Positions 58,761 to 64,000 of a stretch of DNA of 64,000 bases are shown one piece after another (positions within the stretch are counted from its first letter, which is position 1; every line of letters begins with the position of its first letter). The stretch is taken from positions 717-64,716 of the forward strand of contig CALKRM010000028.1 in assembly GCA_937989565.1 (NCBI GenBank), in the 5' to 3' direction. Source of the stretch: an uncultured Candidatus Saccharibacteria bacterium. GTDB taxonomy: Bacteria; Patescibacteriota; Saccharimonadia; Saccharimonadales; Saccharimonadaceae. Position numbers and translations under genes: made by a program. Under the pieces are notes generated by a model. That model saw only the letters and a program-made list of their open reading frames with translations. It did not search any database and was not told where the DNA came from.

Positions 58761-59804
58761 ATGGTTGACTTAGACGAATTGAGAAGAGAAATAGTTTTGG
58801 CGGTTTCGCAATCCAAGTCTCCGCGTGAGTTTTTACGTGATCGACGACTCAGGGAATTGTATGATCAAATCAAGTCATTACCGCCAGTTGAGCGTGGTCC
58901 GTTCGGCAAGCGAATTAACGAGCTGAAGCAAGCTGTTGAACAGGCTATTGCTGTGCGACTGGAAGAGCTGGAAAAAGTTGACTTGAAGCCGATTGACGTT
59001 ACGGCGCCGATGGATGTGAATTCGCCAAAGCCCGAACTTTTGCCGAGCGAACAAGGCACGATTCATCCGCTGAGCGCTGAAATCGAGCGCATTTCTGAGA
59101 TCTTTAATCGCATGGGTTTTGTCACGGAAGAATCCAGAGAAATTGACGATCAATTCCATATGTTCGAGAGTCTGAATTTTCCAAAAGGTCATCCAGCGCG
59201 CGACGATTACGATACGTTTATGACCGAGGAAACTGATTCTAATGGTGATCGTTTGATTGCTCCGGCGCATACGTCGACTATGCAAAATCGTGTGCTAATG
59301 AAATATCGCGACAATTTGGAAAAAGGCGAGGCTATTGCCGCTATCGTTCCTGATCGCGTCTTTCGCAACGAGGATTTGGACGCGCGCCACGAGCATACGT
59401 TTTATCAAGTCGAGGGTGTGTACGTTTCACGCCGAGTTAATGTTGGTAATTTGATTGCTACATTGCAAGAATTTTTGCAGGAATATTACGGCAAGAAACT
59501 TGACGTTCGCGTTAATCCATTTTACTTTCCGTTCACCGAGCCGAGTTTTGAATTTGCGTTAAGCTGTCCGTTTTGTGAAGGAAAAAATCCTGATTGTAAA
59601 GTCTGTTCTGGTGAGGGTTGGATTGAGCTATTGGGCTGTGGAATGATTCATCCAAATGTTCTTCGCGCGGCGCAAATTGACCCGAATGAATATACGGGAT
59701 TTGCTTTTGGTTGCGGAATCGACCGCTTGGTTATGATGAAATATGGAATCGAAGATGTCCGTCATTTTGAAAGTGGCAAGTTGGACTTTTTGGAACAATT
59801 TTAG
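58761..59804 (+). CDS. pheS: phenylalanyl-tRNA synthetase alpha subunit
   Basis: 347 aa. Class II motifs (HP...., FRNE, GFAFGCGIDRL). No pheT downstream. Confidence 0.95.
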   Translation: MVDLDELRREIVLAVSQSKSPREFLRDRRLRELYDQIKSLPPVERGPFGKRINELKQAVEQAIAVRLEELEKVDLKPIDVTAPMDVNSPKPELLPSEQGTIHPLSAEIERISEIFNRMGFVTEESREIDDQFHMFESLNFPKGHPARDDYDTFMTEETDSNGDRLIAPAHTSTMQNRVLMKYRDNLEKGEAIAAIVPDRVFRNEDLDARHEHTFYQVEGVYVSRRVNVGNLIATLQEFLQEYYGKKLDVRVNPFYFPFTEPSFEFALSCPFCEGKNPDCKVCSGEGWIELLGCGMIHPNVLRAAQIDPNEYTGFAFGCGIDRLVMMKYGIEDVRHFESGKLDFLEQF

Positions 59805-59808
59805 CAAT

Positions 59809-60441
59809 ATGAAACTCCGACGGATTAAGGATTTTTTATACAAGAATCGCCTTCAGGTGCTCTGTATTCTTAATGGTGTCGTTTTGGCTGTGGGCTTGGT
59901 TGTGGCGATGCTGCTTTCTGATGATACTCGGTGGACGAACTGGAGCTTGAGTAGATTGGGCGAAACCACCTCGAACCGTTTGTCTGCATTTTCGTTCAAC
60001 TCGGGAGTATTCTTATCTGGTTTGATTATGGCGACGATTGGGTTTTTTATAAATCGTGGTTATCTTAAACTTGGCCAAATTCGCTCTGCTCGAATATCCG
60101 GCTGGATACTTTCATTGTTTGCGATTTGTATGATAGGAGTGGCGCTTTGTCCGAACGATACAATGCACGCGGCGCATTTTGTTTTCTCGCGTGGCATCGT
60201 GATATTGATGGTGCTTTTGATGTTTCTTTTGCCGTCGAGTTTGAGCTATTTAACTCATCGTGAGCGAATATCATCTTTCAGTTTTCCGATTTTTGCGGCA
60301 ATTATAGCGGCGCAAGGTTACGCGATGGGCAAGTTTTGGTTTGTGATAGTAGAAGTTTTATTGGGGATTTTTGCGACAATGTGGCTAGTCCTGGTTTGCC
60401 GTAGAATGGAACTTAAATTGCTCGACCTGAAAACTTCATAA
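59809..60441 (+). CDS. hypothetical 6-TM membrane protein (possibly DUF998-like)
   Basis: 210 aa from ATG 59809, 4 nt after the pheS TAG (track start 59743 overlaps pheS). WSLSRLGE motif. Confidence 0.5.
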   Translation: MKLRRIKDFLYKNRLQVLCILNGVVLAVGLVVAMLLSDDTRWTNWSLSRLGETTSNRLSAFSFNSGVFLSGLIMATIGFFINRGYLKLGQIRSARISGWILSLFAICMIGVALCPNDTMHAAHFVFSRGIVILMVLLMFLLPSSLSYLTHRERISSFSFPIFAAIIAAQGYAMGKFWFVIVEVLLGIFATMWLVLVCRRMELKLLDLKTS

Positions 60442-60459
60442 AATGCTATAATTACTTCA

Positions 60460-60693
60460 AAAGGAGTAATTATGAATCACACAATTTTTGACGACATCGT
60501 ATCTGGAAAAATGAAATCTTGGAAGATTTGGGAAGATGAGAAATTCCTAGCATTTTTAACACCGTTTCCGAATACGCCAGGTTTTACTGTGGTGATTCCG
60601 AAGCAGAATCCAGGCGATTACGTATTTTCTTTGGATGACAATTTATATTCCGAAATGATGCTGGCAGTGAAAAAAGTTGCTGGTATTTTAGAA
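60460..60693 (+). repeat. direct repeat copy 1 (HIT gene SD plus first 222 nt)
   Basis: 229/234 identical to 62169..62402. The 5 mismatches (60612, 60636, 60639, 60666, 60690) are all synonymous third positions. Confidence 0.95.
60472..60693 (+). pseudogene. 5' fragment of a HIT-family gene (74 codons) fused out of context; the track ORF 60472..60846 is a chimera
   Basis: Protein is identical to the intact HIT copy through ...KKVAGILE. It then reads through the pheS-remnant and rclA-upstream sequence. Own promoter TGcTATAAT at 60444-60452 plus an AAGGAG SD. Confidence 0.85.
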
Positions 60694-60695
60694 GC

Positions 60696-60725
60696 GGTAA
60701 GTTGGACTTTTTGGAACAGTTTTAA
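60696..60725 (+). other. remnant of a pheS 3' end (last 9 codons plus stop)
   Basis: ggtaagttggactttttggaacagttttaa versus pheS 59775-59804 ggcaagttggactttttggaacaattttag. 27/30 identical; the differences are synonymous or change the stop type. Confidence 0.85.
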
Positions 60726-60847
60726 GGAGCTATTACACACGATAATAGTAGTAGCTCAAAAACTTGTAATAAAAGAGGCAGTTCTGTGTGCCGATAGAGA
60801 ATTTGTTGCAGCGAGAGAGATCGCTAAAAAAGATAGGAGGAGGTAAA

Positions 60848-62170
60848 ATGGATACACAACAATTTGACGCACTCATCATTGGTTTTGGCAAAGCTGGCAA
60901 AACATTGGCGGTAGCGCTGGCAAATGCGGAAAAAAAGGTAGCGCTAGTGGAGCGGTCGCCAAAGATGTATGGCGGCACCTGTATTAATATTGCTTGTATT
61001 CCTACTAAGGTGCTAGTCAATGCAGCCGAACATCATCAAAGTTTTGATGAGGCGATGGCACATAAGACAACAGTGGTAGCGCGGTTGAATGAGAAGAACT
61101 ATCATATGCTTGCGGATCGTGAAACAGTGAGCGTCATTGAGGGTGAGGCATCGTTCGTAGATGATCGTACTGTGAAGGTTGTGGCGGGTAGCGACGAGCT
61201 AGTAGTTAGTGCACCGCAGATTTTTATTAACACCGGTGCGGAATCAATCATCCCAGATATTCCAGGTGTTGATAAGCCGTTTGTGTATACCAGTACTGAA
61301 TTGCTGGATAGAATGACGCAGCCAAAACAGCTAGCTATCATTGGTGGCGGTTATATTGGGTTAGAATTTGCCTCAACTTATGCTAAACTTGGTACAAAAG
61401 TAACGGTGTTTGAGCGGGGTGATGCCTTACTTACGCGTGAAGATCCGGCAATTGCTCGGGCTGCTACTGAAGCATTGCAGGCACAGGGTATTGAGATTGT
61501 GTTTAGTGTGGATGTGACAGCGATTGAGGGTGAGTCTACCGCGACGATTCGCACAGTAAATCATGATGATTACGCTGGTTATGATGCGGTTTTGATGGCT
61601 ACGGGCCGTCGCCCGGCAACGATGAGCTTGAATTTACCAGCTGCTGGTGTAGCGACGGATGAGCGCGGGGCAATTGTGGTTGATGAAACACTTCGCACTA
61701 GTCGGTCACATATTTGGGCAATGGGCGATGTAACGGGCGGGCCACAATTTACCTATGCGTCGCTGGACGATTTTCGGATTGTGAGAAGCCAGTTGCTGGG
61801 TGACGGTCTGTACACTCGCGCCAAACAAAAAACCTTGCCGTACACGGTCTTTATGCAAACGCCGCTAGGTCGGGTGGGTATGACAGAGGCTGAGGCGCGT
61901 GCGACGGGGTGCGAAATTATCGTAAAAGAGCTGCCTGCTATGGCGATTCCACGCCTGCATGTTGATAATGCTACAACAGGATTGCTGCGTGCGGTGATTG
62001 ATGCAAACACTGAACAAATTTTGGGTGCTAGTTTATTGTGCCGTAACTCACCAGAAGTCATTAATATTATCAAAACTGTAATGGATAATGGCCTGCCATA
62101 TACTGTGCTGCGTGACCAAATATTCACTCATCCAACGGTGAGTGAGGCATTAAACGATTTATTTGCATAA
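60848..62170 (+). CDS. rclA: class I pyridine nucleotide-disulfide oxidoreductase, RclA (YkgC)-like
   Basis: 440 aa from ATG 60848 (AGGAGGAGG SD). IIGFGKAGKTLA, redox motif MYGGTCINIACIPTK, GGGYIGLEFAS, WAMGDVTGG.QFTY, FTHPT.SE. Near-colinear with E. coli RclA as I recall it. Confidence 0.8.
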   Translation: MDTQQFDALIIGFGKAGKTLAVALANAEKKVALVERSPKMYGGTCINIACIPTKVLVNAAEHHQSFDEAMAHKTTVVARLNEKNYHMLADRETVSVIEGEASFVDDRTVKVVAGSDELVVSAPQIFINTGAESIIPDIPGVDKPFVYTSTELLDRMTQPKQLAIIGGGYIGLEFASTYAKLGTKVTVFERGDALLTREDPAIARAATEALQAQGIEIVFSVDVTAIEGESTATIRTVNHDDYAGYDAVLMATGRRPATMSLNLPAAGVATDERGAIVVDETLRTSRSHIWAMGDVTGGPQFTYASLDDFRIVRSQLLGDGLYTRAKQKTLPYTVFMQTPLGRVGMTEAEARATGCEIIVKELPAMAIPRLHVDNATTGLLRAVIDANTEQILGASLLCRNSPEVINIIKTVMDNGLPYTVLRDQIFTHPTVSEALNDLFA

Positions 62171-62402
62171 AGGAGTAATTATGAATCACACAATTTTTGA
62201 CGACATCGTATCTGGAAAAATGAAATCTTGGAAGATTTGGGAAGATGAGAAATTCCTAGCATTTTTAACACCGTTTCCGAATACGCCAGGTTTTACTGTG
62301 GTGATTCCGAAGCAGAATCCGGGCGATTACGTATTTTCTTTGGACGATAATTTATATTCCGAAATGATGCTGGCGGTGAAAAAAGTTGCTGGTATTTTGG
62401 AA
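62169..62402 (+). repeat. direct repeat copy 2 (inside the intact HIT gene)
   Basis: See copy 1; offset 1709 nt. Confidence 0.95.
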
Positions 62403-62642
62403 AAAGCATTTGATACCCCACGAGTAGCGCTGATTTTTGAGGGCACGGGCGTGGCGCATGTGCACGCCAAATTGATGCCGCTTCATGGCGATTTGGCAAA
62501 GGGAATTGGTTCGCCAGTGTCACACGAGCAAGCGTTTTATGAGGAATATCCTGGCTGGTTAACCACGGCTGACGGTCCAAAAATGGACGATGCTCAGCTG
62601 GATGAAATTCAGGCGCGAATCTTAGCTGCGCAAGGTAAATAG
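62181..62642 (+). CDS. HIT-family nucleotide hydrolase/transferase (variant triad HVHAK)
   Basis: 153 aa from ATG 62181. The SD AAGGAG overlaps the rclA TAA. FLAFLTPFPNTPGFTVVIPK, GTGVAHVHAKLMP. Confidence 0.88.
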   Translation: MNHTIFDDIVSGKMKSWKIWEDEKFLAFLTPFPNTPGFTVVIPKQNPGDYVFSLDDNLYSEMMLAVKKVAGILEKAFDTPRVALIFEGTGVAHVHAKLMPLHGDLAKGIGSPVSHEQAFYEEYPGWLTTADGPKMDDAQLDEIQARILAAQGK

Positions 62643-62649
62643 TGATTTT

Positions 62650-63645
62650 CTATTTTGATTCTAATTTTACGTCTTTTCCTTCGTACATATCCAAATAGAA
62701 CGGATATAATTTGTCAGCGTGCTTTTTAACCTCGTCTTGGTTTAAGGCTACAATGTCGTGACCGATGCCAAATGAGGCCGGAATCGAATAATATTGGAAT
62801 TTGGCGCCAGAAGCTGCAGCCATTTGCTTAGGTATGTTGACCGCGAGATTTTTATCAATTGCGGTGTCGTTTTCGCTCGTTACAACCCCTACATATTTTA
62901 GCCCTGGAGCTTTTAGGTCGGATTTATAGTTCTTAGCGATTATTATATATTTTCCAAGAGCGCGATATGACAAATTGCTACCCGTGAACGAATCTGGAAG
63001 AATATTCCGTCCGTAAAGATTTCGTAAAAGCGGAATTTTCCAGGAAGGGGTTTCTGACGCTGAAGGCTGATAAAAAGGTGATAAAAGTAGTGCTCGTGAT
63101 ATGGTTTGGCTGTTGTACTGAGTAATCCAGGTAGCCATATTTGCGCCGCCAGAAAGTCCGATAACTCCCGTTTCATCGCCCAAACCACTAATTATGCTGG
63201 TGCTGGAGTTCATAAATTGCGCCATTGCTGGAATGGTGATTTCTCCGTGTCGTTTGTTGTCCGTCAGACCGTGGCTGGGGACGCGGGGAATATAGACGTT
63301 ATAGCCGGCGTTGAAAAAGGTGTCGCCCAAGTCTGCGAATTGCTGTGGGCATGCGCTTACGCCATGAATCATCATGACGGCTTTGGCGGTTTTTTTGCCG
63401 TGGGTTTTAATAATCGATCGACATTCTGGTCTAACGTCGGTATTTGAAGTGTCTTCGCTAACAGTACGATTTGCAGCGGCGATGGCGTCGTCGTAGCTCA
63501 ATTTTTCAGAACTTGAAGATTGCAATTGCTTGGATGTTGCTGGCCAAAAGAAAGCTGCGGCGACTAGTAAGGCAGTTATAATGACAATTGAGCAGACTAC
63601 CCAAATAGTAATTTTTATAATGCGATTTTTTCGTGAAGTGTCCAT
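62650..63645 (-). CDS. membrane-anchored alpha/beta hydrolase (esterase/lipase-like)
   Basis: 331 aa. N-terminal TM, oxyanion MMIHGV, nucleophile elbow GLSGGA, C-terminal GHD. Confidence 0.78.
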   Translation of the reverse strand: MDTSRKNRIIKITIWVVCSIVIITALLVAAAFFWPATSKQLQSSSSEKLSYDDAIAAANRTVSEDTSNTDVRPECRSIIKTHGKKTAKAVMMIHGVSACPQQFADLGDTFFNAGYNVYIPRVPSHGLTDNKRHGEITIPAMAQFMNSSTSIISGLGDETGVIGLSGGANMATWITQYNSQTISRALLLSPFYQPSASETPSWKIPLLRNLYGRNILPDSFTGSNLSYRALGKYIIIAKNYKSDLKAPGLKYVGVVTSENDTAIDKNLAVNIPKQMAAASGAKFQYYSIPASFGIGHDIVALNQDEVKKHADKLYPFYLDMYEGKDVKLESK

Positions 63646-63697: not shown

Positions 63698-64000
63698 TTA
63701 ATAGTCCATACAAATATCTCTATAAGGTCGCGTCACAATTTCCATTGAATTCAGACCGAGTTTGGCCTCAACTTCACTAATCGTCATCAGCGCACTGGCC
63801 TCATCATCCGACAAAACCTCAACTTCCACGAAAGTCCCAGAGTCTTTGATTTCGTCGATGGCTACCGTTGCTTGCGGAAAGTCAGAGGACTGAAACGAGC
63901 GACGATATTTGTTGACCTCGACCAGTTGTATCATACCGAGGTTTGCCAGTAGCTGCTTGGCGATTGCCGCATCTTCGGGCTGAATTGGCAGGTTCGTCTC
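63698..64000 (-). CDS. CYTH-domain protein (class IV adenylate cyclase/triphosphatase family), 5' end beyond the window
   Basis: The frame stays open from 63934 to nt 64000 (ETNLPIQPEDAAIAKQLLANLG-MIQLVEVNKYRR...). IDEIKDSGTFVEVEV and TRPYRDI are typical of the CYTH C-terminal half. Confidence 0.65.
   Translation of the reverse strand, partial: ETNLPIQPEDAAIAKQLLANLGMIQLVEVNKYRRSFQSSDFPQATVAIDEIKDSGTFVEVEVLSDDEASALMTISEVEAKLGLNSMEIVTRPYRDICMDY

Follow-up and report, generated by a model that had tools for sequence, protein, structure and literature searches.

How does a gene come to stand in a conserved interval between incomplete copies of the two genes that delimit it, while another gene keeps its place beside it? 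This question is raised by a locus in the window, by which we mean the whole 64,000-nt stretch of DNA analysed here, which derives from a human oral Nanosynbacter (Saccharibacteria/TM7). On the plus strand, pheS is followed by a membrane protein gene (TM), a fragment of a HIT-family gene (HIT'), a copy of the end of pheS, an rclA-like gene and the intact HIT gene, each at the position given in the first-pass annotation of this DNA. The answer we favour, with a probability of roughly 70%, is that a block containing rclA came from a lineage with the order pheS-leader-rclA-HIT and was added beside TM through one illegitimate joint and a homologous exchange. Recombination between two gene orders, with one homologous anchor and one microhomology joint, had already been proposed in that annotation, and the proposal is supported by the parental arrangements, the joint and the identity profile described below.

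The composite structure of the locus is visible in two repeats. The resident pheS (phenylalanine-tRNA ligase alpha; 58761-59804; TIGR00468, 245 bits, above cutoff) is intact, and behind TM lies the 234-nt segment HIT' (60460-60693), which comprises the HIT ribosome-binding site and codons 1-74 and was found by repeat search to recur at 62169-62402 as part of the intact 153-aa HIT-family gene (62181-62642; PF01230), the right conserved flank of the slot and its probable homologous anchor. The two segments are 98% identical with 5 mismatches in 234 nt, the first 152 nt being identical; the mismatches (60612, 60636, 60639, 60666 and 60690) all fall on third codon positions, and both copies give the same translation over 74 codons. 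HIT' is devoid of the HxHxH active-site region, and its Pfam HIT match spans profile positions 4-64 only. The second repeat is the end of pheS, of which 60696-60725 matches 59775-59804 at 27 of 30 positions, a match of which 0 were expected by chance in 100 shuffles. Without gaps it extends to 35 of 40 positions (60685-60724 versus 59764-59803), the resident copy found by repeat search being the last 41 nt of pheS (59764-59804). If the start of the remnant is put at 60693/60694, its length is 33 nt and a fourth change is included, which is also synonymous (AGT to AGC).

The joint between the two fragments lies within a microhomology of 9 nt (60685-60693), where HIT reads ATTTTGGAA, pheS reads ATTTTGAAA and the window reads ATTTTAGAA, so that the two parents agree at 8 of 9 positions. 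By definition, homology-facilitated illegitimate recombination (HFIR) has one homologous and one illegitimate end (PMC3240628), and a joint of this length and match is within the range of about 3-12 nt that characterises its short-microhomology joints. Among 51 joints compared, the junction reads GGAAG in 23, GAAAG(C) in 21, GAAAG(T) in 4 and AGAAG in 3. The repeat search found no repeats other than the HIT and pheS copies, and no attC-like inverted repeats flanking the cassettes. The duplication of the HIT 5' end with its five synonymous sites, the pheS-end copy and the microhomology at the joint were all claims of the first-pass annotation, and all are borne out by alignment and translation.

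The joint is widespread. It creates a chimeric ORF of 124 aa (60472-60846), a truncated HIT ORF in which 74 HIT codons are followed by the pheS remnant and the leader read out of frame, and the exact chimeric protein was found in 118 blocks of publicly available assemblies. The gene order is identical in ten contigs with lengths of 69-772 kb. Of the 88 loci fetched first, 30 contain the joint sequence GCTGGTATTTTRRAAGCGGTAAG, among them Candidatus Nanosynbacter sp. TM7-008 (CP157587, L067), whose genome is closed; OX335598 (L022), likewise a closed chromosome, shares this gene order, its HIT' being frameshifted. The structure of the window occurs in 17 GTDB species representatives, closed genomes among them, and in 15 independent metagenome contigs. 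The chimeric ORF runs through the entire leader and its stop lies 1 nt before the rclA ATG. Translational coupling of the ORF to rclA is possible, but the B-type allele described below has no such ORF.

The relatives also contain both parents. The loci of the relatives were grouped by pheS similarity into the window's clade (clade-1; pheS about 94-96% nt identity) and a sister clade, whose pheS is about 74-75% identical to that of the window at the nucleotide level and 86-92% identical within the clade. The close relatives are all Candidatus Nanosynbacter or Saccharibacteria (TM7); among them are human oral taxon 352, human oral taxon 348 and TM7 strains that have been brought into culture. 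We labelled the structure of the window A, the same structure minus 190 nt of HIT' B, pheS-TM-HIT without rclA C, and pheS-leader-rclA-HIT D. Four arrangements occur in the window's clade, namely A, B, C and, in two genomes, pheS-leader-rclA-HIT; in one sample that was ascertained through TM and is hence unbiased for rclA, A was counted 15 times, B 10 times and C 12 times. Arrangement C is found in L016, L017, L093, L096-98, L104 and others of the window's clade as well as in L126-L130 of the sister clade, and arrangement D in the sister-clade loci L046-L062, L065 and L071-73. The sister-clade slot thus holds either TM or leader-rclA, and this clean alternation is confined to the sister clade. 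The D-type pheS end AGCGGTAAGTTGGACTTTTTGGAGCAGTTTTAA and leader match the remnant and leader of the window; the donor-type sequence ...CATTTTGA(A/G)AGCGGTAAGTTGGACTTTTTGGAGCAGTTTTAAGGAGCT... runs on through the same leader into rclA, and from 60694 onward nearly every base agrees with the window. The remnant (60694-60725), which consists of the last pheS codons and a TAA stop, is therefore near-identical to the pheS ends of pheS-rclA-HIT genomes and is of donor type. Both parental orders predicted from the window were accordingly recovered, pheS-TM-HIT in both clades and pheS-leader-rclA-HIT in the sister clade.

Which of the two blocks is the newcomer had been considered undecidable from the window, but the relatives decide in favour of the rclA block. 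Compared with the C-type locus L016, the window is collinear on both sides of the insert, with 95.8% identity up to 60693 and 96.5% from 62169 on. The last 600 nt of pheS agree with the sister clade at 76-86% of nucleotides; from a pheS value of about 77%, identity climbs to 92-99% for the stretch between 60694 and the rclA end (to about 62197), and in HIT it is about 83%. Because identity rises exactly at 60694 and falls at the start of HIT, the pheS remnant, the leader and rclA form a horizontally shared block, which extends from 60694 to 62180. TM, at the same position in both clades, is 67-69% identical between them at the amino acid level, in step with the pheS divergence, while rclA is 96-98% identical between the two clades; among members of the window's clade, divergence is lower in rclA (97-99% nt identity) than in pheS (94-96%). 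L069 and L031, the two genomes of this clade with rclA alone, descend from the composite allele. L069 (Candidatus Minimicrobia vallesae IHU2, CP076459; 4800-4870) reads ...GGAATCGAAGACGT followed by GCTGGTATTTTGGAAGCGGTAAG..., which means that pheS is fused to the last 13 nt of HIT' and then runs into the original joint, with the last 14 PheS residues replaced; this genome has many apparent frameshifts, and its single-base details are uncertain. In L031 the switch from resident-type to block-type sequence sits at the joint position, as expected for recombination between the two pheS-end repeats. Since the flanks are shared with C-type genomes, identity jumps at the block, TM tracks the backbone, rclA is less diverged and the rclA-only genomes are derived, the evidence points to the rclA block as the newcomer and to TM as the ancestral occupant of the pheS-HIT slot.

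We propose the following course of events. The pheS-HIT interval in Nanosynbacter is a slot for gene cassettes that differ by lineage, and the window's lineage would have started as pheS-TM-HIT. DNA of a pheS-leader-rclA-HIT lineage would then have been taken up, most likely by natural transformation. Saccharibacteria have been found to be naturally transformable through ComEC in culture (PMC10633639), and the Pfam lists of neighbouring genes contain no integrase, transposase or recombinase gene within 6 kb on either side. The right end would have been fixed by homologous recombination through HIT, and at the left end, a donor end 33-41 nt before the pheS stop may have been joined to recipient HIT codons 72-74 through the 9-nt microhomology. 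If the donor was a linear strand, its terminal 9 nt would have paired with HIT codons 72-74, adjoining the homologous anchor just downstream, with the pheS tail, rclA and the HIT 5' segment forming an insertion loop. No deletion would have been involved; the recipient would have retained TM and gained rclA, and the by-products would be the truncated HIT copy fused to the pheS tail. The composite allele may then have spread in the clade, eroding in some lineages and being reused in others, where the HIT'::'pheS linker would recreate both flanking homologies and allow more cassettes to be added or swapped by ordinary recombination. Observed are the joint, the two parental orders, the limits of the imported block and its occurrence in many independent genomes; that the DNA entered by transformation, in which order the two ends were joined, and that saliva selected for an RclA-type hypothiocyanite/hypochlorite defence is what we infer from these patterns.

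Several observations weigh against this account. The imported block is 92-99%, not 100%, identical to the sampled sister-clade genomes, so that the true donor would be unsampled or the event not very recent. Classical HFIR products lose recipient DNA, whereas here no recipient sequence is missing compared with C-type genomes and 234 nt are duplicated instead, and duplications of such kind in E. coli were traced to a single crossover of circular molecules and not to true HFIR (PMC3240628). The event would therefore be either a zero-deletion variant of HFIR or a single crossover of a circularised fragment, and the HFIR label of the first-pass annotation holds for the illegitimate microhomology joint and may hold for a homologous anchor in HIT, which both parents share and at whose start the block ends, but not for the recipient deletion that such products normally show. 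When the HIT copies were painted with 21 clade-diagnostic sites, the intact HIT of the window was of clade-1 type at 21 of 21 sites, and both copies are clade-1 at all or nearly all of them, which with a sister-clade donor implies that the donor tract has since been overwritten or that the crossover lay less than about 20 nt from the HIT start. Sister-clade tracts do adjoin rclA in four other loci (L009, L103, L094 and L023), and inter-clade HIT tracts occur, beside these rclA-proximal ones, in full copies, truncated copies and one TM-only genome. In addition, the evidence for transformation comes from cultured Saccharibacteria and would apply to the window's lineage by analogy, and two further joints at the slot (L037 and L057, see below) were each present in one assembly and not found in the other loci surveyed.

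The duplication leads directly to the rival that survives best, although we consider it unlikely, a Campbell-type variant of the main model: the microhomology joint closed the donor fragment, with the pheS tail at one end and HIT codon 74 at the other, into a circle, which integrated by a single homologous crossover in the HIT 5' region. The 234-nt direct repeats flanking the insert are the signature of single-crossover integration, and the E. coli work cited above provides experimental precedent for such products. Judging from the present sequences, a linear strand and a circularised fragment would both fit. Transformation delivers single strands, however, and a double-stranded circle would need extra steps; moreover, other joints at the slot keep only 20-31 nt of HIT, which is a poor substrate for a crossover.

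We regard it as very unlikely that the polarity was the reverse, i.e. that the recipient had pheS-leader-rclA-HIT and that pheS-TM-HIT(1-222) arrived, anchored homologously in pheS and joined at its right end, again through this microhomology, at a point 33 nt ahead of the pheS stop of the recipient, with TM-HIT' as the newcomer. This would yield the identical final structure through the textbook geometry of linear HFIR and with a duplication of only 33 nt, and for L057 and L051 a reading of the joints with a left anchor is possible as well. The divergence pattern points the other way, as TM diverges with the backbone between the clades and rclA does not, and rclA is younger than pheS within the clade. 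The right flank of the composite (HIT and the a/b hydrolase gene) is 96.5% identical to TM-only genomes, and the rclA-only genomes of the window's clade are deletion derivatives of the composite.

Also highly improbable is an origin by tandem duplication, in which the stretch between the pheS tail and HIT codon 74, both included, was duplicated in situ by microhomology-mediated unequal sister-chromosome exchange, and one of the two identical cassettes was later swapped by ordinary double homologous recombination. A junction of the HIT start to the pheS end has the exact look of a duplication join point, both HIT copies of the window are of the same clade type, and duplication of stress genes under selection is common. 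Nevertheless, two copies of TM or of rclA in tandem were seen in none of 168 loci, the pheS remnant is of donor type and not of resident type at 4 of 33 sites, and the scheme requires an extra step and the upkeep of an unstable duplication. The first-pass annotation had named relatives that all carry the duplicated structure with non-synonymous decay as the sign of an old in-situ duplication; the relatives do carry the structure widely, but such decay was not seen. The possibility that the joint is an assembly chimera of co-existing strains, a concern of the first-pass annotation, or the insertion of a site-specific mobile element is practically negligible, for it has nothing in its favour except the many co-existing strains in the window's species, the same joint occurs in the 118 assembly blocks and in closed genomes, a 9-nt overlap is too short to mislead an assembler, and neither integrase and transposase genes nor attC-like repeats lie nearby.

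The five synonymous differences between the HIT copies had been taken as a sign that both evolved as functional genes in separate lineages before being joined. Part of this stands, because functional alleles are indeed the source of the variants: with 2 exceptions, every HIT' variant also occurs in the pool of functional HIT alleles, and the 2 variants private to HIT' copies are both non-synonymous, one of them lying within the joint. Their number, on the other hand, is no relic of the founding event, since in a blastn comparison HIT' and HIT differ at 0 (L008) to 27 (L009) positions depending on the strain, and for the same reason we rejected the five differences as a clock for the event. The copy differences therefore reflect continuing allelic exchange or gene conversion. 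Meanwhile, the scar decays. HIT' is frameshifted in L022, reduced to 31 nt in B-type loci and lost along with TM in L069 and L031; the chimeric ORF is destroyed in B-type alleles and frameshifted in L022. The B-type loci (L014, L018, L021, L030, L032, L033, L036, L037, L039, L043 and L068) carry, at about 220 nt upstream of rclA, a 190-nt deletion of HIT' whose right end is exactly at the right edge of the original joint and which shows no microhomology. Slippage from the A-type at GTAT or TGGA repeats and an independent joint were both rejected as origins of the B-type, as neither yields CATCGTAT joined to AGCGG.

In the remaining scar, homology to HIT is restored over 222 nt and homology to pheS over 33-40 nt, and because both are recreated, the linker is usable as a substrate for further additions. 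Across the relatives, the contents of the slot between pheS and HIT are TM, rclA, TM+rclA, NUDIX+CPBP+rclA, TM+adenosine deaminase, rclA+adenosine deaminase or TM+X-Y(+rclA). The X-Y pair follows the same HIT'::'pheS linker as in the window in L100 (4030-5830) and L118 (4660-8570), and in the latter three modules, TM, X-Y and rclA, are stacked with two linker copies between them; neither X (309 aa) nor Y (148 aa, a membrane protein) has a Pfam match. In L037, a HIT fragment of sister-clade type (about 170 nt) stands after rclA, is fused via GATGAT..AA to the last 75 nt of a pheS and is followed by genes X and Y. In L057 (960-2360), where a NUDIX gene and a gene for a CPBP-type protease come first, the initial 21 nt of HIT are fused in frame to rclA codon 6 via TTTGACG, replacing the rclA N-terminus by the first 5-7 HIT codons (MNHTIFD...). 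The adenosine deaminase cassette (L051:6330-7480; L133:1710-2890), found in several species, has in every case a 20-nt copy of the HIT start in front of it, whether it follows rclA or TM, and its stop codon overlaps the HIT ATG. We tentatively put forward, at slightly less than even odds, that the pheS-HIT interval is a recombinase-free cassette-stacking site, where rare microhomology joints between the two flank genes give rise to HIT'::'pheS linkers from which arrays of up to three modules are built, as in L118, and through which the RclA-type gene has swept dozens of lineages.

The neighbourhood of the slot is variable as well. In these genomes pheS and pheT are not adjacent, and between them lies a strain-variable island of 5-7 kb (L001-L020; in the window from 62650 to its end at 64000) with genes for a/b hydrolase, CYTH, ASCH, GNAT-ASCH and NUDIX proteins, an OLD-type TOPRIM/AAA nuclease, and a block of QueC and a thymidylate-synthase-like gene. 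After HIT comes either of two a/b-hydrolase genes, which lie on opposite strands and share about 47% identity, one in L046, L051-L060 and L069 and the other in the window (62650-63645), and this position is another variable slot. As for the slot between pheS and HIT itself, TM (59809-60441) encodes a 210-aa multi-pass membrane protein; a Pfam search gave no match for the window protein, and PF06197 (DUF998) is listed for the orthologues in L003 and L008.

The cargo gene (60848-62170) encodes an RclA-like flavoprotein disulfide reductase with the domain trio of class I pyridine nucleotide-disulfide oxidoreductases (Pyr_redox_2, Pyr_redox and Pyr_redox_dim); its redox motif (CxxxxC) is CINIAC, at residues 45-50. 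Its best NCBIfam match is RclA (NF040477), with 601 bits, which is below the equivalog cutoff of 740 and still above the 538 bits of Har/MerA; the best PDB relatives are 6KGY/6KYY (E=1e-140), and the identity to Citrobacter RclA is about 54-55%. Hypothiocyanite is abundant in saliva, where it is made by lactoperoxidase. E. coli RclA and S. pneumoniae Har are reductases of hypothiocyanite and reactive chlorine, and HOSCN, which they reduce, is an oxidant present in saliva and in the airways (PMC9335216, PMC9483559). By its sequence, the cargo is likely a hypothiocyanite/hypochlorite reductase, and by analogy a selective advantage of rclA in the mouth is plausible; we found no literature linking RclA to Saccharibacteria. 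The protein is 96-100% identical across more than 50 Saccharibacteria species representatives, while flanking genes reach only about 75-85%, which suggests a gene-specific sweep of rclA through human oral TM7. In an oral taxon 348 genome, for instance, rclA is within that range and the adjacent aquaporin is only 34% identical. The 122-nt leader that accompanies rclA (60726-60847), with the ribosome-binding site GGAGGAGG at its end, is 92-100% identical across clades. An RNA element in it was considered and rejected, as there was no Rfam match (E up to 1) and the weak consensus fold showed no compensatory changes or covariation. Predicted promoters and terminators were not more numerous than expected from shuffled sequence.

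Natural competence in Saccharibacteria has been shown only recently, and in culture (PMC10633639), whereas this locus records natural gene gain without a mobile element, with the parental arrangements, the donor-type sequence and several decay products still extant in the population. If the cassette-stacking reading is true, transformation-driven gene gain would here have left its first trace at population scale in the candidate phyla radiation, and an RclA-type hypothiocyanite defence gene would have swept dozens of species-level lineages of oral Saccharibacteria. With its defined arrangements and a selectable stress, the locus also offers an experimental system for illegitimate versus homologous integration in an ultrasmall epibiont.

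Among known systems, the integron cassette array was rejected as a model, as no integrase lies within 6 kb and no attC-like inverted repeats flank the cassettes. The join points of tandem duplications and Campbell insertions share with our locus the junction of downstream (HIT) to upstream (pheS) sequence and the direct repeats, but here the genes in the two repeat units differ and the pheS remnant is foreign in type. The orphan module arrays of T6SS, Rhs and CDI systems, for which HFIR has been proposed (PMC5361080), likewise have new modules beside old ones and leave fragments of conserved genes that are usable in later recombination; those modules are toxin-immunity pairs, whereas here housekeeping or stress genes are involved and fragments of two flank genes are fused head to tail. 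The cargo itself has the three-domain architecture and CxxxxC redox motif of E. coli RclA and pneumococcal Har, although it scores below the RclA cutoff.

The minimal mobile elements of Neisseria, first noted at pheS/pheT, are similar in that conserved flank genes enclose different whole-gene cassettes without mobility genes. Their spread relies on transformation and on homology in the flanks, one of the flanks is here once more pheS, and the strain-variable island between pheS and pheT in TM7 resembles the Neisseria pheS/pheT cassette site. The Neisseria elements, however, are exchanged by clean double homologous recombination, whereas at our locus the left end is illegitimate, fragments of the flank genes serve as linkers, and cassettes are stacked, two in the window and three in L118. 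The closest likeness is to HFIR in the natural transformation of S. pneumoniae, Acinetobacter baylyi and Pseudomonas stutzeri, with which the locus shares one microhomology end and, probably, one homologous end, the absence of a recombinase gene and a competent phylum. It differs in that the recipient lost no DNA and the anchor gene was duplicated over 234 nt, and in being a fixed natural allele with both parents identified instead of a laboratory product. The locus, whose cargo is ecologically suggestive and whose site bears signs of repeated use, is a new and unusually well documented case, found in nature, of a process already known, from a phylum that has received little study.

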